Source of the DNA: a virus | Length of the DNA: 64,000 bases | Virus record (IMG/VR): IMGVR_UViG_3300024348_000017 | Location: 1 to 64,000 of that record | Direction: 5' to 3' (one strand) | Part shown: piece after piece, positions 51,869 through 58,171 of the stretch | Layout of the letters: every line of letters begins with the position of its first letter | Position numbering within the stretch: position 1 is the stretch's first letter | Notes under the pieces: model-generated | The model's input: only the letters and a program-made list of their open reading frames with translations | Databases searched by the model: none | Told to the model about the DNA's origin: nothing | Program-made: the position numbers and the translations under genes

Positions 51869-53526
51869 TATTCAACTATTAATTCTATCTTTTTACCAGT
51901 AGCATCAACTGCATCTGCTAATACTGTATAGAATAAACCTGCAGTGTTACTTAGAGGTGATTTAGAAGTAAATATTAATTTATATGGAGTACCAACTTTA
52001 ATTCTAGCTGTCTTTAATTGATCAATTGAACCAAATGTTAACCTACCATTATCATGTGTTGAGAAATTTGTAACTGTACTTCCAGCATCAAATATAACAT
52101 CTGTTAATGTTAATTTAGTACTATCGTATTGCATGATTACTTCTAAACCAGCTAAATCAGCTTTAGTTAAGCTTGCTGATAATGTTACTTTATTATTTTC
52201 AACTGTAGATGTTAAGCTTAATGTTGCTTTTTCTAAAGCTTCAGTAGCGTAAGCCATACTGCTAAATGATGCTGTTCTTATAGTTTCACCTGGGTTAATT
52301 GAATTATAATAGTTACCGCTTGATATTCTTGAAGCAATAGTATCAGGATGAGATGAGTGTGACCAATCTAAATCACCACCCCAAGCAAATACAGCGTCTA
52401 CTGTTTGAATTGGAGTTGCAATTGTTACTTTATTTGTTTGTCCACCATCTAACCAAGTTTGATTTAATAAACCACTATAGTATCTTACTGATGTGGATGT
52501 TGATTTAGGAACAGATGCTTTAGAAGTTACATCTATACCCATTACATGAGCAAATAAGTAGTAACCATCACTTTCACCAAATGTGGAATTACTTAATGTT
52601 ATTAAACCAATTCTTTTCTCTAATACAGGCCTAGTAAAATATGTTGAGGTACCAGTAATATCAGTTTGAGTATGTCCTAAAAATGCCTTATAAGCATCTG
52701 ATACTGTTATAATATTATTCATCCAAGTTTTAGTCATTGCAGGTGCAATAAATACACCTAAACTATCTCCAACTTTAATCCCTGATGTGAATATTGCTTC
52801 ACCACTAGCATCTAATGCTTTAGTTTGTATTGGTTGTTGAGTCCAATCAATACCACCACTACCATCAGTTTTTAATTTCATTAATTGAACTGAATGATCA
52901 CCAATATTGTAATTTGAAGGAAATAATACTCTAACTTTAAATTGAGATGTATTACCACTTACACTCGATAGTGATACTTTACCTGTTGTAGTTGTGATTG
53001 GAGCAATATAAGCTGATGTATCATCAATAGCATATGATAAGTCTAATTTATGAATGTCAGTATAATCAGCCAAATCTTTAATTACATATTTTTGTGTTGC
53101 TATAATTCCATCAACACTAGCATCAGTTCTTTGTACTGTTAATTGACCAATATTCCAATCTGAATTTGAAACATAAGACCAAGGTGTAGCTAAATATTGT
53201 GCGTATAAACTTGTTGCAACTATACTATTTGCTGTACTTGCTGTAAATTTATAAGATGACCAATTTGTATAATATGTTTGCACTGCACTACCTTGTGACC
53301 AGGTTGTTGATACATAAGCTAAAGCTTTGTTATTAAATTGATATCTTAACCAATAATAACGTGGTTTAGTTGTACCCTTAGCTACAGTGTACTTAATTTG
53401 AATAGTATCACCCACCTTATAAGGTGCTGCTGTTACTACTGCTTGGTTTACTGTTAATTGTGCGTTGGCTGTTAATGACAGCATAGATACTGCTAGTATC
53501 CCTAAAATTGTTAATAGTTTTTTCAT
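51868..53526 (-). CDS. secreted cohesin-like + degenerate dockerin + cohesin-like protein
   Basis: KVGDTIQIKY...LRYQFNNKALAY; ITVSDAYKAF; GGDLDWSHS; LAGLEVIMQYDSTKLTL; C-terminal DAVDATG shared with 49952. Confidence 0.65.
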   Translation of the reverse strand: MKKLLTILGILAVSMLSLTANAQLTVNQAVVTAAPYKVGDTIQIKYTVAKGTTKPRYYWLRYQFNNKALAYVSTTWSQGSAVQTYYTNWSSYKFTASTANSIVATSLYAQYLATPWSYVSNSDWNIGQLTVQRTDASVDGIIATQKYVIKDLADYTDIHKLDLSYAIDDTSAYIAPITTTTGKVSLSSVSGNTSQFKVRVLFPSNYNIGDHSVQLMKLKTDGSGGIDWTQQPIQTKALDASGEAIFTSGIKVGDSLGVFIAPAMTKTWMNNIITVSDAYKAFLGHTQTDITGTSTYFTRPVLEKRIGLITLSNSTFGESDGYYLFAHVMGIDVTSKASVPKSTSTSVRYYSGLLNQTWLDGGQTNKVTIATPIQTVDAVFAWGGDLDWSHSSHPDTIASRISSGNYYNSINPGETIRTASFSSMAYATEALEKATLSLTSTVENNKVTLSASLTKADLAGLEVIMQYDSTKLTLTDVIFDAGSTVTNFSTHDNGRLTFGSIDQLKTARIKVGTPYKLIFTSKSPLSNTAGLFYTVLADAVDATGKKIELIVE

Positions 53527-54180
53527 TTATTTTTCTCCTAATAGTTTAGTGACTAATTTATCACAACCTTTCTTAATAGCGTTACTAAGACTTGTTTGAT
53601 TGAATTTACCACCCTCATCTACTATAAGAGTCGACATAGAGATTTCAGATGATGATTCTTCAACTAAAACCTCTTTTTCTTTGATACCATCTTTGTATAA
53701 AATACCTTTTAAACGAATTACAACTTCTTGTTCGTTTTTATGAAACACAGATACGTTCTTTTTTGTAGTTAGAACGTCTAGATAAACAATTTCAACACGT
53801 AATTTATTCTCAGCATCTGGGGATAAATCATATCCCTTTTCCTGAATATATTCTTCTAAAATATTTTTAACACCGAATTCTAAATTGCGGTTACCTGCTA
53901 ATTTACCAATAACAACTTTATTAGTAACTTTCTCAACATAAATATGTTCAGATGCATTATACCAAATATTACCTGGGCTATTTTTAAAAGTACCATCGAA
54001 TCTCCATGAAAATTCATTGGCTAAATGTTGCATATATTCTTCTTTTCCAGAGAATTGAAGAACTACGAAGAAAATTTGTGTAATTAATGCAAGACCTATA
54101 AATAATCCTACACCTAATAAGAATAATTGAAATAATCGGTCGCGTAGACTGATGGCCAGACTGATAGCTTTTTGCTTCAT
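53527..54180 (-). CDS. membrane-anchored periplasmic protein, LptE/CsgG-like alpha-beta fold
   Basis: N-terminal TM; GVKNILEEY...GYDL...LRVEIVYLD...LSNAIKK parallels 45938; late motif at 54207-54214. Confidence 0.5.
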   Translation of the reverse strand: MKQKAISLAISLRDRLFQLFLLGVGLFIGLALITQIFFVVLQFSGKEEYMQHLANEFSWRFDGTFKNSPGNIWYNASEHIYVEKVTNKVVIGKLAGNRNLEFGVKNILEEYIQEKGYDLSPDAENKLRVEIVYLDVLTTKKNVSVFHKNEQEVVIRLKGILYKDGIKEKEVLVEESSSEISMSTLIVDEGGKFNQTSLSNAIKKGCDKLVTKLLGEK

Positions 54181-54216
54181 CTTTTAATTTTTAATGTGGT
54201 TCGAATATAAATATGC

Positions 54217-54244
54217 AAAAGAAAGCAACCATTTCTGGTTGCTT
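54217..54244 (-). terminator. intrinsic terminator closing the RNA island
   Basis: AAGCAACCA-GAAA-TGGTTGCTT-TCTTTT. Confidence 0.75.
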
Positions 54245-54297
54245 CGTAAAAGGCCCACTCTGAGCGCCCTGATCGCGGGAAGGGGAATGGACTCTTG

Positions 54298-54668
54298 TGG
54301 AGATGACGAGAGTCGAACTCGTGTCTCAATAATGAACAATAATACCAACGTCTCACACGCTTAGCTCACTGATTAACCCCAGTGCATGAGGTATAGGGCC
54401 ACAAGTTTTTGGTCTTAGTGACATCCACCACCTAGTTTTAATCTAAACTAAGAAAATCTAGCTTGTAACTTCTGTTCCTAGGATGTTACACCCGACGCTA
54501 TTTAAGCCGCTAATGCGTACTCGTTCGCACCTACGAAAGACATCATATCTTCGAAGGTCATAGTAGATAATTCTACAGTTATTGTTTCGCAAGGTTTTAA
54601 GGACTTATCTTACTTTGTCCGCGTGTGGTACTACCTTCAGATTACTGATCAAATACCGGTACATCCCC
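54298..54668 (-). ncRNA. ssrA: tmRNA
   Basis: 5' GGGGATG pairs with 3' CATCTCC-A (G3:U70 alanine identity); T-arm ACGAG-TTCGACT-CTCGT; tag ORF 54576-54502 after AATAACT encodes VELSTMTFEDMMSFVGANEYALAA*. Confidence 0.93.
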
Positions 54669-54968
54669 ATGTTTTTTTGACTTTTTGTCTAATATTTTCT
54701 TCACTTCAGCACATAACTCATATTCCTCAATTTTAATTAAGTCATCTAAGCAATTGCTTAATAGTTCAATATACTGCGATTTTTCAATATTAAATATCAT
54801 ACCACTTGTATCCTTGAATGTGATATCAAATATATCAATGCCGTCTTTATTTCGTTTATATGCGCTAAGTACACATTTAACCATTTTAAGAATCAATTCA
54901 CTGTCCCTTTCCTTCATCATTTGAAGGAACTCACGTTGATCCTTTAACATTAAACAGTGGCATGCCAT
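54642..54968 (-). CDS. small protein with C-terminal UVR-like motif (paralogue of 58174)
   Basis: EEYELCAEVKK; start moved to 54968 after ATATTTAT; 3' end overlaps the tmRNA 5' end. Confidence 0.6.
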   Translation of the reverse strand: MACHCLMLKDQREFLQMMKERDSELILKMVKCVLSAYKRNKDGIDIFDITFKDTSGMIFNIEKSQYIELLSNCLDDLIKIEEYELCAEVKKILDKKSKKHGDVPVFDQ

Positions 54969-54981
54969 AACGATAAATATT

Positions 54982-55091
54982 AAATACACTGTCTGTACTG
55001 TTAAACTGTCTCAATACTACCTTTATCCGTAGTAGAGGTGCTTTATTCATTCTTAGCGTCTGTTCAGTCCTCCTTTCGGAGCAGTGTATTT
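54982..55091 (-). ncRNA. putative multibranched structured RNA
   Basis: 10-bp closing stem AAATACACTG/CAGTGTATTT; CTCC-GAAA-GGAG and TACTAC/GTAGTA internal hairpins. Confidence 0.5.
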
Positions 55092-55092
55092 G

Positions 55093-55178
55093 TGCCTCAG
55101 GCGAGAATCGAACTCGCACTCGCGTTGCGGCGAACAGGATTTTAAGTCCTGCGTGTCTACCAATTTCACCACCAAGGC
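55093..55178 (-). tRNA. tRNA-Leu(UAA)
   Basis: CAGGA-CTTAAAA-TCCTG anticodon arm, long variable arm, GTTCGATT T-loop. Confidence 0.92.
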
Positions 55179-55238
55179 ATGAGACCCGATATCCGCGTTT
55201 TCATCTCACTCGGGTCATGATGAGCTTCCGACGGTTTG

Positions 55239-55394
55239 CTGTAGGGGCTGGAATCGAACCAGCACGCTGCAATTCAATATAAGACAATTAAGCCGGCTTT
55301 GTGGTCAACCCATATCTTACATCTATCTCTTATCAGCACCCACGAGACGAGTGGGCACGTCTACCTTGACTGCCGTCATTTCCGCCACCCTACA
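55239..55394 (-). ncRNA. 156-nt tRNA-like RNA (GUC in the anticodon position) with expanded D-loop and ~75-nt variable arm
   Basis: Acceptor TGTAGGG/CCCTACA; T-arm GCTGG-TTCGATT-CCAGC; anticodon arm CCCAC-TCGTCTC-GTGGG. Confidence 0.75.
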
Positions 55395-55397
55395 GTA

Positions 55398-55664
55398 TTA
55401 AACCCATCTATTACCATTTCGGCGTTTAGCTTCTTCAGCTTCTTTAACTCCTTTAACCATTTTAATCCAGGTTAAAGATACGTCAACAGGAGCTAATACC
55501 CAAGCCATAACTAAAACCATTATAGCATCCATTTCTGGGGAGGTTCCGAAATCAATTCCTCTTGTTTTATATTTTTTATTTAACTGATAGAAACAGTAAA
55601 TAATACAAATAATGTAATAACCTAATAACATATAACTATTTTTTAAAGTATTTTTCAAGTGCAT
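55398..55664 (-). CDS. small membrane protein inside the RNA island
   Basis: Two hydrophobic segments; true start probably MLLGYY. Confidence 0.5.
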   Translation of the reverse strand: MHLKNTLKNSYMLLGYYIICIIYCFYQLNKKYKTRGIDFGTSPEMDAIMVLVMAWVLAPVDVSLTWIKMVKGVKEAEEAKRRNGNRWV

Positions 55665-55845
55665 CTATCTTATCATCAGCATCAACTAACATTGTAAGTG
55701 CTTCTTCAGCATTACTATAGAAGTCTTTTGTTGAATGATCACCAATACCAACAGCGTGATTAGATAATAAATCTAAACTTAATAATGCTTTTGATTTTTC
55801 AGCTATTGCTGATGCCATAAGCATGTCAAATAATTCTTTTTTCAT
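55636..55845 (-). CDS. small conserved phage protein
   Basis: AVGIGDHS motif. Confidence 0.65.
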   Translation of the reverse strand: MKKELFDMLMASAIAEKSKALLSLDLLSNHAVGIGDHSTKDFYSNAEEALTMLVDADDKIDALEKYFKK

Positions 55846-55858
55846 ATTTTTTATTTTG

Positions 55859-55943
55859 CGGAAAGACAGGGATTCGAACCCCAGAACCTGTTACAGTTGC
55901 CAGTTTTCAAGACTGGTGCATTCAACCACTCTGCCATCTTTCC
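55859..55943 (-). tRNA. tRNA-Ser(UGA)
   Basis: CCAGT-CTTGAAA-ACTGG, long variable arm, G73. Confidence 0.92.
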
Positions 55944-55948
55944 AAGAG

Positions 55949-56046
55949 GATGAGGTTTAGCGGCCAACTAAACAAAGTTACTACTTGCTCTCACCTCGAG
56001 TTACACGTGACAGTTACGGGTGAATAGGGTTTCGTCAACACTCATC
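55949..56046 (-). ncRNA. putative structured RNA between tRNA-Thr and tRNA-Ser
   Basis: GATGAG/CTCATC closing stem stacked on GTTTAG-TTGGCCG-CTAAAC; TTCACC/GGTGAG stem. Confidence 0.45.
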
Positions 56047-56050
56047 TTTG

Positions 56051-56123
56051 ATCCAGAAATAAGAATCGAACTTACGACCTACTGATTACAAATCAGTTGC
56101 TCTACCTGCTGAGCTATTCTGGA
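56051..56123 (-). tRNA. tRNA-Thr(UGU)
   Basis: ACTGA-TTTGTAA-TCAGT; canonical D and T arms. Confidence 0.9.
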
Positions 56124-56127
56124 GTTT

Positions 56128-56212
56128 AGAGGATAGGCTCCGCGCCTCTACTAGGGGTTTCCTAATAGCGTAGACTTTCATGTTATTACCTTCGCATGCT
56201 CTCCTACCCTCT
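56128..56212 (-). ncRNA. putative structured RNA
   Basis: 10-bp closing stem AGAGGGTAGG/CCTATCCTCT; internal CTATTAGG/CCTAGTAG and CATG/CATG hairpins. Confidence 0.5.
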
Positions 56213-56221
56213 TTATATTTT

Positions 56222-56298
56222 TAGGAAAGTAGAAGATGGGTGCGTGGACATCTACTTTTACGATTGGCATTTCTAACCGATTATATCCGCCCTTCCTA
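56222..56298 (-). ncRNA. putative 77-nt cloverleaf-sized structured RNA
   Basis: TAGGAAG/TTTCCTA closing stem; AGATG/CATCT hairpin. Confidence 0.4.
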
Positions 56299-56335
56299 CA
56301 GTTAAAGGATACGTCCCAATCAACCTAATATCATA

Positions 56336-56404
56336 ACAACTACCTACAATTTTTTAAAGTCGCCTCCTCGTCATGCGATGGTTATACCTGCGGCAGGTAG
56401 TTAT
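56336..56404 (-). ncRNA. putative structured RNA
   Basis: 12-bp closing stem ATAACTACCTGC/GTAGGTAGTTGT; TCGC/GCGA hairpin. Confidence 0.45.
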
Positions 56405-56410
56405 TGTTTG

Positions 56411-56482
56411 TTGCGAGAGAAGGATTCGAACCTCCGACCCCTAGGTTATGAGCCTAGTGAGCTACCCCTGCTCTATCTCGCG
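56411..56482 (-). tRNA. initiator tRNA-fMet(CAU)
   Basis: CTAGG-CTCATAA-CCTAG; C1:A72 mismatch. Confidence 0.88.
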
Positions 56483-56487
56483 GTTTG

Positions 56488-56559
56488 TACTTCCAACGGG
56501 ATTTGAACCCGTATTACTTCCGTGAAAGGGAAGTGACCTAACCCTTAGTCGATAGAAGC
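56488..56559 (-). tRNA. tRNA-Glu(UUC)
   Basis: CTTCC-CTTTCAC-GGAAG; short variable loop. Confidence 0.9.
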
Positions 56560-56567
56560 AACTCTAG

Positions 56568-56798
56568 TTACTCAGCTTCTGGAGTTTCTACTGCTACAAT
56601 TACTTCTGCAATTTTAGCTTCTGATGCTGATTTAACTTCAAATGCCTCTTCGTCGCGGCTCAATAAATATTGCACTGTGCGGGCTTCCGCCTCAGTTACT
56701 GATTGAGCGTCCACTAAGTAGTTTACTGTTTCTTTTTTTACTTTACCATTTTCGTTTTCAATTCTAAATTGAACTTTTACGTTGAAATACTGTCCCAT
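56568..56798 (-). CDS. DUF4494 family protein
   Basis: YF.VKV....ENGK.KK....YLVDA.S.TEAEAR; start moved to MGQYF at 56798. Confidence 0.8.
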   Translation of the reverse strand: MGQYFNVKVQFRIENENGKVKKETVNYLVDAQSVTEAEARTVQYLLSRDEEAFEVKSASEAKIAEVIVAVETPEAE

Positions 56799-56805
56799 GT
56801 TTTTA

Positions 56806-57117
56806 TTAGTTTTGTTTTGTGTATACTGAATAATCGTAGATGTGAGCTCTATATTTGTATAGAACTTTTTGGAATTTACCACGATTTTTATATTCTTCAA
56901 TAGATTCACCTTCTCTACGTGATGGGGCAATACCCATATAGTAGTCAATTACATCGTTGTTTAGCTTAACTTCATTAGCAAAGAACATCATCTTAGCCAT
57001 GTTTTGAGATCCAAATGGCTGGTAACCAGCTTTATACATTTGTTTTACTTCAGCTGGTAATTCAAAACCAGCAAATTGGTTGTGTAAACCAACATATTGT
57101 TTTTTAGGTCCTCCCAT
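56806..57117 (-). CDS. hypothetical protein
   Basis: ORF with promoter at about 57139-57170 that probably also drives the RNA island. Confidence 0.6.
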   Translation of the reverse strand: MGGPKKQYVGLHNQFAGFELPAEVKQMYKAGYQPFGSQNMAKMMFFANEVKLNNDVIDYYMGIAPSRREGESIEEYKNRGKFQKVLYKYRAHIYDYSVYTKQN

Positions 57118-57155
57118 ATTTTATAACTTTATTTACGGTAAATATACGACGGGCA

Positions 57156-57755
57156 TTATAATATTCCAAGTGCTTTCATATTCTCTATTTGATCTTCTGA
57201 AAGCTGAAAATCGGGTTCCGCTACATTGTATTTGTTGGTTGTAAAGCTTTCAATCTTATCTACCTGTTCGGGAGTAAACACATCGCCTATAAGTAAATAA
57301 TAACAATTATAACATAACAATTCTAAATTATCCAAACGATAATTACGTTTGTTATTATCTTTAAAGTTAAGTAATAATGGTATTTTATAGTCAGTTACTC
57401 TACGCTCGCAGAATCCACAATTACTGCAATCCTCAGCTATTTTATTTTCATAAATTAGTCTATTTTTAATCTTTTCAGGATTAAAGTGAGAAGGATCCAT
57501 TGAACCATTTAATATCTGCTCTAAAGCAGGCTCTTTCTTCTTACCAACTAAATGTTTAGGAATGCCCTTACCAGATTGGTTTAAGTGGGTATCAAATAAT
57601 GTTTTACTCGTTTCGTCATCTGTATAGAGCTTAGCATATGCCTTATAATGAGTATAAGAGCAATTTAAGTAACGAGCAGCTGCTCTATTACTACGAGTAT
57701 GTCTCATAGCCCTTAAGACATCGTCTTTCGAAAACGGTTTTGGTTTCATTCCCAT
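57156..57755 (-). CDS. HTH + degenerate HNH-like Zn-finger protein
   Basis: SNRAAARYLNCS; CSNCG...N...NY..DNLELLCYNCY (the usual His positions are substituted). Confidence 0.6.
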   Translation of the reverse strand: MGMKPKPFSKDDVLRAMRHTRSNRAAARYLNCSYTHYKAYAKLYTDDETSKTLFDTHLNQSGKGIPKHLVGKKKEPALEQILNGSMDPSHFNPEKIKNRLIYENKIAEDCSNCGFCERRVTDYKIPLLLNFKDNNKRNYRLDNLELLCYNCYYLLIGDVFTPEQVDKIESFTTNKYNVAEPDFQLSEDQIENMKALGIL

Positions 57756-57757
57756 AA

Positions 57758-58171
57758 CTACTTTTTTTTCTTCAAACCCTCATTGATAACCTGTAGCAAT
57801 AACCACAATTCATCTGGATTTTGAAGTATTACTTCTTTGCCTGTTGGATCAACTAATACATTTATGCTTCCGTCTGGATTTAGTCTATCATAAAGATAAA
57901 AGAATATTAACTCCGATGCTTCTTTTCCAAAATGCATTACTAATAAATTATCAATAGCATCGTAGAATATATCATCGTATTTATTAAGATCTAATTTAAA
58001 ATCATTTTCTAAAATGAATGAACGACCATTTGCTTGTTCTAGATTAATTATAACCTTATTAAACAAATCTCTAGTAACGTCAGTTTGTGTTTTCTTCCTT
58101 CTAGTAAGAGTTGTATCAGAACCTAAAATTAAATCTATTGATTTTTTTGCATCGTCAATATTATCCTCCAT
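57758..58171 (-). CDS. hypothetical protein
   Basis: ORF track. Confidence 0.6.
   Translation of the reverse strand: MEDNIDDAKKSIDLILGSDTTLTRRKKTQTDVTRDLFNKVIINLEQANGRSFILENDFKLDLNKYDDIFYDAIDNLLVMHFGKEASELIFFYLYDRLNPDGSINVLVDPTGKEVILQNPDELWLLLQVINEGLKKKK

Follow-up and report, generated by a model that had tools for sequence, protein, structure and literature searches.

The tRNA array of an uncultured, T4-like freshwater phage, whose lineage probably has its host among the Bacteroidota, carries seven short RNA modules (E1 to E7) in the spacers between its RNA genes. The modules form helix-closed folds on the tRNA strand, abut tRNA ends, covary, are reused in differing slots among relatives and are absent from RNA catalogues, and most of them belong to recurring phage RNA families without a catalogue match. 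We favor, at a probability of roughly 0.55, the view that they are autonomous RNA genes which are transcribed together with the tRNAs and released when the tRNA ends are processed, a view in which we infer their release, stability and function.

Organization of the tRNA array

The window, i.e., the whole stretch of 64,000 nt analysed here, belongs to an IMG/VR record of 90.9 kb (IMGVR_UViG_3300024348_000017) that is ∼53% complete. Between 54295 and 56559 its minus strand, on which all array features given below are located, encodes five tRNAs and a tmRNA that were identified with ARAGORN and Rfam. The first RNA gene of the array is that of tRNA-Glu (UUC, 56487..56559, 59.5 bits with the Rfam tRNA model), and it is followed by those of tRNA-Met (CAU, 56410..56482), tRNA-Thr (UGU, 56050..56123), tRNA-Ser (UGA, 55858..55943), tRNA-Leu (UAA, 55092..55178) and the tmRNA (54295..54668; RF00023, 71.6 bits). 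A giant tRNA-like RNA, which we call X and which forms the context of module E5, lies at 55239..55394 and combines an acceptor helix with a canonical T-arm; its profile recovered 157 copies across 139 loci. An encoded CCA end is missing from 555 of the 565 tRNA genes of the clade.

The preliminary description had regarded the region as a tRNA island. RNA modules do lie between the tRNAs, but three conserved small protein genes are found inside the array as well, encoding proteins of 69 aa (55636..55845; phrog_1811, E-value 9.6e-9, tblastn matches in 15 loci), 88 aa (55398..55664; matches in 47 loci) and ∼110 aa (54642..54989; matches in 30 loci), the last of which overlaps the 5′ end of the tmRNA with its final nine codons. 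Because these genes are interleaved with the RNA genes, a single precursor is not established. In line with the original reading, however, one intrinsic terminator (54222..54245, terminator scan) closes the array, which is its only one; it is kept in 12 of 12 islands and is the sole minus-strand terminator-like site outside RNA genes between 54000 and 57300. A sigma-70 promoter scan of the array stayed at chance level, as did the frequency of the CATATTTATA motif. In the relative L004, tRNA-Glu, -His, -Thr and -Met are packed 5–11 nt apart and several modules are absent; as relatives such as this one do without several of them, no module is essential for the array.

Helix-closed modules at the spacer edges

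Folding yielded terminal helices of 12–13 bp in E1, 10 bp in both E3 and E6, 8 bp in E7, 7 bp in E5 and 6 bp in E4, while that of E2, in its original bounds, appeared in the centroid structure only. The probability of such helices was estimated from dinucleotide shuffles, with the closing helix placed at most 8 nt from both ends: no equivalent was found in 2000 shuffles of either E1 or E3, and P-values of 0.0015, 0.007, 0.02 and 0.03 were obtained for E6, E2, E7 and E5, respectively. All seven elements that had been proposed as helix-closed thus exist and their helices refold, with the reservations that the bounds of E2 had to be corrected (see below) and that the closing helix of E4, taken alone, is not significant (P = 0.11). 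Similarly, the notion that the spacers are exactly filled applies to the terminal helices, which do lie at the edges, but E5, with its 34 nt, takes up only part of the 60-nt stretch that separates the X RNA from tRNA-Leu, and a 37-nt gap that had been left between E1 and E2 is part of the latter. Three helix-closed modules tile the 286-nt spacer between tRNA-Met and tRNA-Thr and together account for 233 nt of it, a degree of tiling that is matched by 0.4% of shuffles. Helices of at least 9 bp, counted genome-wide, are not enriched in the island (5.6 versus 5.3 per kb), so that the signal resides in the placement of helices at the spacer edges.

Further properties ascribed to the elements from the outset were confirmed: their GC content (0.39–0.68) exceeds that of the genome (0.33) and is in line with that of stable RNAs, they lie 0–5 nt from the adjacent tRNA or tmRNA ends in the window, and TTCRA T-loops are absent from all seven. 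A search of positions 53000–58000 against Rfam 15 at E ≤ 10 returned only tRNAs and the tmRNA as significant, with no match to any spacer or element, and eight loci with X-like RNAs gave no match at the gathering threshold. Comparison with homologs, which had been suggested as a test, revealed compensatory changes in E1, the E2 family, E4, E5, E6 and E7, leaving E3 as an orphan. G-U pairs are common in the module helices and A-C-type mismatches nearly absent, and all 81 of the 81 E2-family neighborhoods described below are co-stranded, which identifies the tRNA strand as the sense strand. Such comparative patterns support the interpretation of the modules as structured RNAs read in tRNA sense.

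Searches for interaction partners were less informative. Matches of the elements within the 90.9-kb record were 10–14 nt long and at chance level, and a sequence-based literature search gave no relevant match. RtcB, Ro60/TROVE and a CCA-adding enzyme were not found in the half-complete record, which therefore offers no functional context; in a search for the T4 Rnl1 family the control, too, found this family nowhere. The roles initially envisaged for the modules as decoys, antitoxin RNAs or protein sponges have no specific support.

A widespread RNA family represented by E2

Among relatives of E2, neither the terminal stem nor the 5′ arm of the element in its original bounds is conserved, the latter being missing in L003, L103, L268, L002 and L138, while the 3′ 55 nt are nearly invariant. 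The corrected unit (56219..56329) takes in the 37-nt gap toward E1 and forms a three-way junction, in which helix P0 (AGG/CCU) and helix P1 (UGAUUGG/CCAAUCR), the latter enclosing a variable domain, are accompanied by a hairpin, P3, with a near-invariant 19-nt loop. More than 119 IMG/VR contigs contain a member of the family, and an alignment of 89 of its sequences (A4) contains 42 invariant columns over 87 distinct sequences. Compensatory changes affect four of seven pairs in P1 and two of seven in P3, both helices being 99.8% paired, and the covariation score was 0.188 compared with 0.089 in shuffles. When the 3′ partner was slid by 1–3 columns as a control, pairing of P1 and P3 collapsed. 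Together these two helices contain 75 G-U cells versus about two non-standard ones. The outer pairs of P0 are unpaired in ∼40–50% of the sequences; its 3-bp core is invariant and hence uninformative with respect to covariation.

The family is closely tied to tRNA genes: for 81 of 88 copies a tRNA-type gene lies no more than 500 nt away, and in each of these 81 neighborhoods every such gene is co-stranded. In 50 of 88 copies the element starts 0–4 nt past the 3′ end of a tRNA or tRNA-like RNA. Overall this distance ranges from 0 to 9 nt, while 4–12 nt separate the element from the tRNA that follows; many copies are preceded by E1 or another member of the family instead of a tRNA. The E1+E2 pair occurs after tRNA-Met, after tmRNA or at the start of an island, and a minimal form of ∼80 nt exists in L268, L328 and L415. 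Scanning metagenomes with the X RNA as anchor recovered many X-like copies and only one additional copy of E2. Among GTDB genomes, 62 matches to the E2 pattern, approximately the number expected by chance, included three true copies, located on short contigs of Bacteroidota MAGs.

The remaining modules

E1 (56336..56404), a 69-nt RNA with a 12-bp closing helix (fold z-score -2.0), belongs to a family that is always found directly 5′ of an E2-family element, and three of its pairs show compensatory changes in an alignment of 12 sequences (A5). The 85-nt element E3 (56128..56212; z-score -2.5) is likewise helix-closed (10 bp). No relative of it was detected by BLAST or nhmmer in the collected loci or by a pattern search of IMG/VR, and its status therefore depends on one sequence.

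E4 (55949..56046) is a 98-nt RNA with two inner hairpins, whose closing helix (GAUGAG/CUCAUC) is invariant in an alignment of seven sequences (A8) that contains two compensatory pairs. It is 100% identical in L005 and L373; between genomes sharing an identical E4, the identity is 85% for the tmRNA, 79% for the X RNA and just 75% for the flanking protein. This identity across diverged genomes, together with the 42 invariant columns of the E2 family, points to selection on sequence beyond structure. The succession GAUGAG...CGAAA in E4 resembles the core of a hammerhead ribozyme; on inspection C3/U4 and stem II are missing, Rfam gave no match, and this assignment was rejected.

The 110-nt element E6 (54982..55091) has a 10-bp closing helix and a folding z-score of -3.85, and its family comprises six sequences. 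Seven of 18 pairs, some of them in the closing helix, show compensatory changes in five sequences (alignment A6), and a covariance model (R1) found a further match at L109:1215-1326 between tRNA-Leu and tRNA-Arg. Relatives of E6 are located after tRNA-Leu, tRNA-Ser or an X-like RNA.

Two modules are short hairpins. E5 (55183..55216, 34 nt, 7-bp stem) follows X and its 22-nt trailer. It recurs in three further contigs (L087, L005 and L340), in the first two again after the trailer of X, and includes one compensatory pair (A-U to G-C). E7 (54253..54292, 40 nt) is a clean insertion between the 3′ end of the tmRNA and the terminator that is present, among 12 aligned islands, only in the window and L013. 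With L440, where it follows tRNA-Ser, it is known from two further contigs, and its stem also contains one compensatory pair. Neither hairpin is followed by a U-tract, as an intrinsic terminator would be; E5 and E7 more likely represent 3′-trailer or end-protection hairpins. The presence of E7, E6 and the E1+E2 pair in differing slots indicates a gene-like modularity.

Release of the modules and alternative explanations

In the scenario that we favor, each module would act as a compact, self-contained fold with paired 5′ and 3′ ends, transcribed with the array in the direction of the tRNAs. The flanking tRNA genes encode no CCA and lie 0–12 nt away, which suggests that the modules could be released as discrete RNAs: RNase P, in cutting the 5′ end of the tRNA that follows, would free the 3′ side of a module, and a 3′-endonuclease such as one of the type of RNase Z or RNase E would cut the upstream tRNA after its discriminator. 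The products would be discrete small RNAs of 40–140 nt that are shielded from exonucleases by their terminal helix, and the E2 family, E6, E4 and E1 might use their conserved single-stranded loops to act in trans on a partner, either a protein or an RNA.

An unlikely alternative is that the modules are cis-acting processing spacers, i.e., insulators which help adjacent tRNAs to fold or to present their ends and which are discarded after cutting. Terminal helices positioned exactly at spacer edges would fit such a function, as would the non-homologous structured fillers that share one slot (e.g., that from an E2-family element to tRNA-Thr), the orphan status of E3 and the dispensability of modules in relatives with tightly packed tRNAs. 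Insulators would have no need of conserved loops, however, yet the E2 family keeps its invariant columns and its 19-nt loop in all those contigs and E4 is unchanged between diverged genomes; moreover, the modules change neighbors and so do not co-evolve with one tRNA. It is also doubtful whether the E2 family, at the least, catalyzes a reaction or binds a ligand, for instance as a self-cleaving RNA of a new class that would trim the 3′ trailer of the tRNA ahead of it and be functionally analogous to the HDV-like theta ribozymes. The frequent start of E2 elements 0–4 nt past a tRNA-type 3′ end corresponds to the position of theta ribozymes (PMC10879173), and the three-way junction is compact, very rich in invariant nucleotides and known in a minimal form of ∼80 nt, which would fit a ribozyme. 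On the other hand, no known ribozyme family was matched at E ≤ 10, an HDV-like nested pseudoknot is absent from all tRNA 3′ ends, E2 elements start anywhere between 0 and 9 nt from the tRNA end and many copies do not follow a tRNA at all. A broader form of this idea, in which the E2 family would be a new catalytic or ligand-sensing class that cuts or gates tRNA 3′ trailers, with E6, E4 and E1 as further RNA-processing or host-interfering members of a toolkit, is just as conjectural.

Recombination at the DNA level offers a rather improbable explanation, according to which the inverted repeats mark miniature mobile elements or cassette junctions that shuffle tRNA genes, perhaps with the help of the HNH endonuclease encoded nearby (57156-57755). 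Patchy presence with exact insertions and deletions, as in the case of E7, and the occurrence of one module in several slots would be accounted for, but no second copy of any element exists in the ∼53% complete record, whereas MITE-like elements would be dispersed in several copies per genome, the genes inspected near the array included no transposase or integrase, and covarying internal hairpins and strand-specific wobble pairs argue for RNA rather than duplex DNA sites. Integron attC-like sites were considered separately and rejected, as inspection revealed no R′/R′′ core at the element ends and no integrase is present among the scanned genes. That the modules are decayed or highly derived tRNA genes appears very improbable. 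Sizes of 69–110 nt and a terminal helix that might be an old acceptor stem (in E1, 12 bp could equal acceptor plus T stem) are compatible with this origin, and the relatives L103 and L440 possess tRNA-like genes with non-canonical T-loops. None of the elements matched the Rfam tRNA model (RF00005) at E ≤ 10, however, none contains TTCRA, the cores of the E2 family, E4 and E6 lack a cloverleaf layout and, as the preliminary description had anticipated, ARAGORN called none of them at a threshold of 80% (at 60% it produced 476 background calls in 90 kb and was useless). Hardly credible, finally, is a leader peptide or translational switch, in which an AUG in the loop of the E2 family would open a frame (MST[H/E/Q]PSS...) that gates the downstream tRNAs. 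This AUG and the following ten codons are conserved and codon 3 shows synonymous variation at its third position, but none of the remaining codons ever varies in this way, the stop is not fixed (frames range from 10 to over 50 codons, and 16 of 93 exceed 50 codons into downstream sequence) and no U-tract follows P3 to form a terminator.

Comparison with other phage RNAs

The closest precedent for autonomous RNA genes in such a position is found in T4, whose RNAs C and D are non-tRNA species transcribed from the phage tRNA region and without known role (PMC3014915). The modules were thus correctly regarded as undescribed with respect to Rfam, but not in kind. The genes rnaC and rnaD, which correspond to the stable RNAs known as species 1 and 2 (139 and 119 nt), adjoin tRNA-Arg on the tRNA strand at 1–6 nt from their neighbors, and the modules described here share with them the location in a phage tRNA cluster, the strand and the distance of a few nucleotides from tRNAs; by analogy, they may be the same kind of thing. 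They are not homologous, since the T4 tRNA region, when compared with every element by blastn, gave only chance matches of 9–20 nt. The fold of rnaC, which has a canonical T-arm, rather resembles that of the X RNA, as E1 to E7 lack such an arm. In addition, the T4 RNAs lie at the end of the cluster, whereas seven modules of at least six unrelated families are interleaved with the tRNAs here.

Among larger structured RNAs, GOLLD (RF01998), first found in lake metagenomes, and ROOL (RF03087) are single RNAs of 500–800 nt that are often neighbors of tRNAs in phages and have no known function. The modules are likewise phage-borne structured RNAs associated with tRNA genes, but they are independent units of 34–111 nt, and neither model matched at E ≤ 10 between 53000 and 58000.

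HDV-like theta ribozymes of gut Caudoviricetes are located near the 3′ ends of phage tRNAs and have been proposed to process their trailers (Kienbeck et al., 2024, PMC10879173). Like them, most E2-family elements start 0–4 nt from the end of the upstream tRNA, as do E4, E6 and E7. A descriptor search, however, found the nested double pseudoknot of theta ribozymes (P1, P2, P3, P1.1; catalytic C in J4/2) at none of the seven tRNA-type 3′ ends, the HDV/theta descriptor gave one start in the island versus 0–3 in shuffles, and Rfam models of the HDV family did not match at E ≤ 10. Furthermore, the most conserved part of the E2 family is a hairpin whose counterpart would be P4, which is dispensable in theta ribozymes. 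Fremin and Bhatt (2023) reported 10,006 candidate structured RNAs from uncultured phages in IMG/VR, including tRNA-like ones, and the main text of that study does not describe modules in the spacers of tRNA arrays (PMC10690425).

Implications

The phenomenon itself has been known since the discovery of the species 1 and 2 RNAs of T4, and our analysis demonstrates that it is not an oddity of that phage. The value of the finding is limited in that its functional side is inferred and in that blastn detected neither the E2 family nor E6 in cultured phages. If the E2 family were indeed catalytic, it would represent a second, structurally unrelated solution to the processing of trailers besides the theta ribozymes. 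One uncultured freshwater phage lineage carries at least six unrelated families of structured RNAs in its tRNA array, one of which (E2) has a very wide distribution and is conserved down to single nucleotides. Several families missing from Rfam are thereby flagged, and the alignments A4, A5, A6 and A8, together with model R1, provide comparative material on possible roles in tRNA maturation, counter-defence and host takeover.

Layout of the array

The window is taken from a 90.9-kb IMG/VR record, of which it covers the first 64 kb; the record is ∼53% complete and has a GC content of 33%. With ARAGORN and Rfam, genes for tRNA-Glu, Met, Thr, Ser and Leu and a tmRNA were located on the minus strand at 54222-56559, where the transcript order, including the structured spacer elements E1 to E7, is Glu, Met, E1, E2, E3, Thr, E4, Ser, two small protein genes, the giant tRNA-like RNA X, E5, Leu, E6, a small protein gene, tmRNA, E7 and an intrinsic terminator. 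This terminator (54245-54222), directly 3' of E7, is the sole one on the minus strand outside RNA genes and is kept in 12/12 aligned syntenic islands. The three small ORFs have tblastn matches in 15, 47 and 30 loci, which indicates that they are real genes. The ∼110-aa gene that separates E6 from the tmRNA is conserved and reads into the tmRNA without meeting a stop codon; the two overlap at 54642-54668 (-), the tmRNA 5' acceptor region forming the last nine codons of the gene (GDVPVFDQ*). ARAGORN predicts the tmRNA tag ANEYALAA in the window (∼54500-54580, -) and tags of 23-25 aa (VELSTMTFEDMMSFVGADYAVAA and similar) in relatives (alignment of 12 islands). Since the stretch upstream of the window tag is conserved in frame, with third-position-like changes, this tag may be unusually long.

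Folding reproduced the terminal helices of every element, and of the seven helix-closed elements in the preliminary description six stood as described, while E2 had been mis-bounded. When helices anchored at the spacer edges were compared with dinucleotide shuffles, none of 2000 shuffles reached the closing helix of E1 or that of E3 (P = 0.0015 for E6, 0.007 for E2, 0.02 for E7, 0.03 for E5 and 0.11 for E4), and tiling of the 286-nt Met-Thr spacer by three helix-closed modules (233 nt) occurred in 0.4% of shuffles. Helices of ≥9 bp abound throughout this AT-rich genome (5.3 per kb) and are no denser in the island; what is unusual is their placement at spacer edges. As had been noted, the elements are richer in GC than the genome (0.39-0.68 vs. 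0.33) and all lack the TTCRA motif present in every tRNA, X and the tmRNA. No Rfam 15 family matched any spacer at E ≤ 10.

Mosaic islands in related phages

About a dozen syntenic islands were gathered through homology to the two flanking genes (217 and 126 aa). They are mosaics, the same slots holding different tRNAs and different fillers. An HNH endonuclease gene (57156-57755, -) lies ∼600 nt upstream of the array, comparable to segB inside the T4 tRNA cluster, and such an endonuclease could be responsible for the islands being mosaics. In BLAST searches each element except E3 recurs in few to many relatives; for E3 no relative was found in any data searched. Recurrence with compensatory pairs supports six of the elements as structured RNAs, E3 being left without relatives.

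Two further families of structured spacer elements, absent from the window, were also seen in relatives: one with three hairpins, immediately 5' of tRNA-Ser (L013:4072-4181, L084:6718-6826, L006:4473-4576), whose L006 copy has differing stem sequences at the same positions, and another of ∼130 nt that separates the E2 family from tRNA-Thr (L013:3865-3997, L084:6514-6643). ARAGORN leaves uncalled a further tRNA-like gene of relatives (L103:3686-3951 (-), L440:1380-2260 (-), L424, L414). Its acceptor is GCCGGUG/CACCGGC, a hairpin is inserted in its type-II D-arm and its T-loop is non-canonical (GAAGU-UAAGCAAU-ACUUC).

The E2 family

In five relatives (L003, L103, L268, L002, L138) the 5' arm of the first-drawn E2 stem is missing and the 55 nt on the 3' side hardly vary. 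The unit was re-bounded to 56219-56329 (-), taking in 37 nt previously left between E1 and E2, and at least 119 IMG/VR contigs match a 20-nt pattern from its conserved loop. Alignment of 89 copies gives the order AGG, P1, P3, CCU. P1 (UGAUUGG with CCAAUCR) encloses a variable domain, sometimes nearly absent, leaving minimal forms of ∼80 nt, and the P3 hairpin (AAAGNAG with CUNCUUU) carries a 19-nt near-invariant loop. Both helices are 99.8% paired, with compensatory changes in 4/7 pairs of P1 and 2/7 of P3 (62 cells). The covariation score is 0.188, vs. 0.089 in shuffles (0/500 reach 0.188) and ≤0.075 with partners slid. P1 and P3 contain many G-U pairs (75 cells) and next to no non-standard ones, which establishes that the folded strand is the tRNA strand. 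The AGG/CCU core of helix P0 is invariant, and ∼40-50% of sequences leave the outer pairs of this helix open, so that P0 is no more than plausible. In total, 42 columns are invariant.

Within 25 nt upstream of 88 copies we found a tRNA (35/88), an X-like RNA (15/88) or another family member (3/88), and of the other 35 copies at least 10 follow E1. The gap from the upstream tRNA end is usually 0-4 nt; downstream, a tRNA begins after 4-12 nt in 41/88. A tRNA-type gene lies within 500 nt in 81/88, always on the same strand. In one subclade (L326, L330, L349, L363, L385 and ∼12 more) the E2-family element comes after an X-like RNA, and 21-23 nt downstream of the element lies a conserved ∼92-aa gene (M.QEVYTDYE...FMHDW.FHFNPYT.LWNAIPR). 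Cultured phages in GenBank gave no match at blastn sensitivity, and 185,579 species genomes held only three true copies, each on a short contig of a Chitinophagales, Sphingobacteriaceae or “Bacteroidetes” MAG, which points to phages of Bacteroidota as the probable carriers.

Other element families

The 10-bp closing helix of E1 (12 sequences) shows one compensatory and several one-sided changes, its inner hairpin two compensatory pairs; in the relatives checked E1 precedes an E2-family copy by ∼10 nt, in a slot usually held by a tRNA. In E4 (7 sequences) the closing helix is invariant and two hairpins have one compensatory pair each. E4 is identical (98/98) in loci L005 and L373, where identity is 85% for the tmRNA, 79% for X and 75% for the 217-aa protein. 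E6 (five sequences) has compensatory pairs at 7/18, including the closing helix, which is wholly different in sequence in L383 and L375; a covariance model search added a copy between tRNA-Leu and tRNA-Arg (L109:1215-1326). E5 recurs in L087, L005 and L340 with one compensatory pair, following the X trailer in the first two. E7 is a clean 40-nt insertion 3' of the tmRNA, confined to the window and L013 among 12 aligned islands, and was found again after tRNA-Ser in L440, with one compensatory pair.

Giant tRNA-like RNAs and tRNA 3' ends

X (156 nt, 55239-55394, -; also L205, L214, L320 and L005:3820-4370) combines an 8-bp acceptor, a canonical T-arm, a D-loop with an inserted hairpin and a ∼75-nt variable arm, and is very widespread. 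A profile from 14 phage copies matched 157 copies in 139 loci; ∼110 of these loci are metagenome contigs without a nearby tRNA, and some contigs carry 2-4 tandem copies. Rfam gave no match in eight X-like loci. T4 rnaC (species 1 RNA; L325:1409-1547, -) has a fold whose ends are paired and which includes a canonical T-arm (CCGGGUUCGAAUCCCGG); it thus resembles X as an oversized tRNA-like RNA, but is not picked up by the X profile.

CCA is not encoded in 555/565 tRNA genes of the clade or in any of the window, so their 3' ends must be cut endonucleolytically. CAA(A/G) follows the discriminator of every tRNA-type gene in the window (in X, AAA directly follows the terminal C), and CAA occurs in the trailer of 57% of clade tRNA genes; it may be a shared processing signal.

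Nature of the elements

Taken together, strand-specific conservation of structure, conservation of loops, a GC content like that of stable RNAs, modules abutting tRNA ends exactly, CCA-less tRNA genes and module re-use beside different neighbors suggest that the elements are most likely autonomous RNA genes carried in the tRNA array. RNase P and 3'-end processing would free the modules; that they are released, persist and act in trans is inferred. A role as purely passive spacers would account for E3 having no relatives, for fillers that are not homologous to one another and for relatives that do without some elements, but leaves the 42 invariant E2-family columns and the 100% conserved E4 unexplained. 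Dense conservation and a position like that of theta ribozymes (PMC10879173) have suggested that the E2 family might be catalytic, yet no known ribozyme fold is present and its distance to the tRNA end varies. Readings as mobile DNA, leader peptides or decayed tRNAs failed direct tests; ARAGORN called none of the elements a tRNA at 80% of its threshold, in line with the non-tRNA nature originally proposed.

As autonomous RNA genes, the elements would resemble T4 RNAs C and D, which are understood to arise by release from the tRNA region and whose roles are still unknown (PMC3014915). The inferred origin by tRNA-type end processing is the same, but the window families share nothing with rnaC or rnaD. 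The earlier interpretation is partly supported. Non-tRNA small RNAs in phage tRNA clusters are long known as a kind, and what appears undescribed are these families, which have no Rfam 15 match and were not found in a literature search by sequence. Among them, the E2 family is a large, uncatalogued RNA family with a supported fold.
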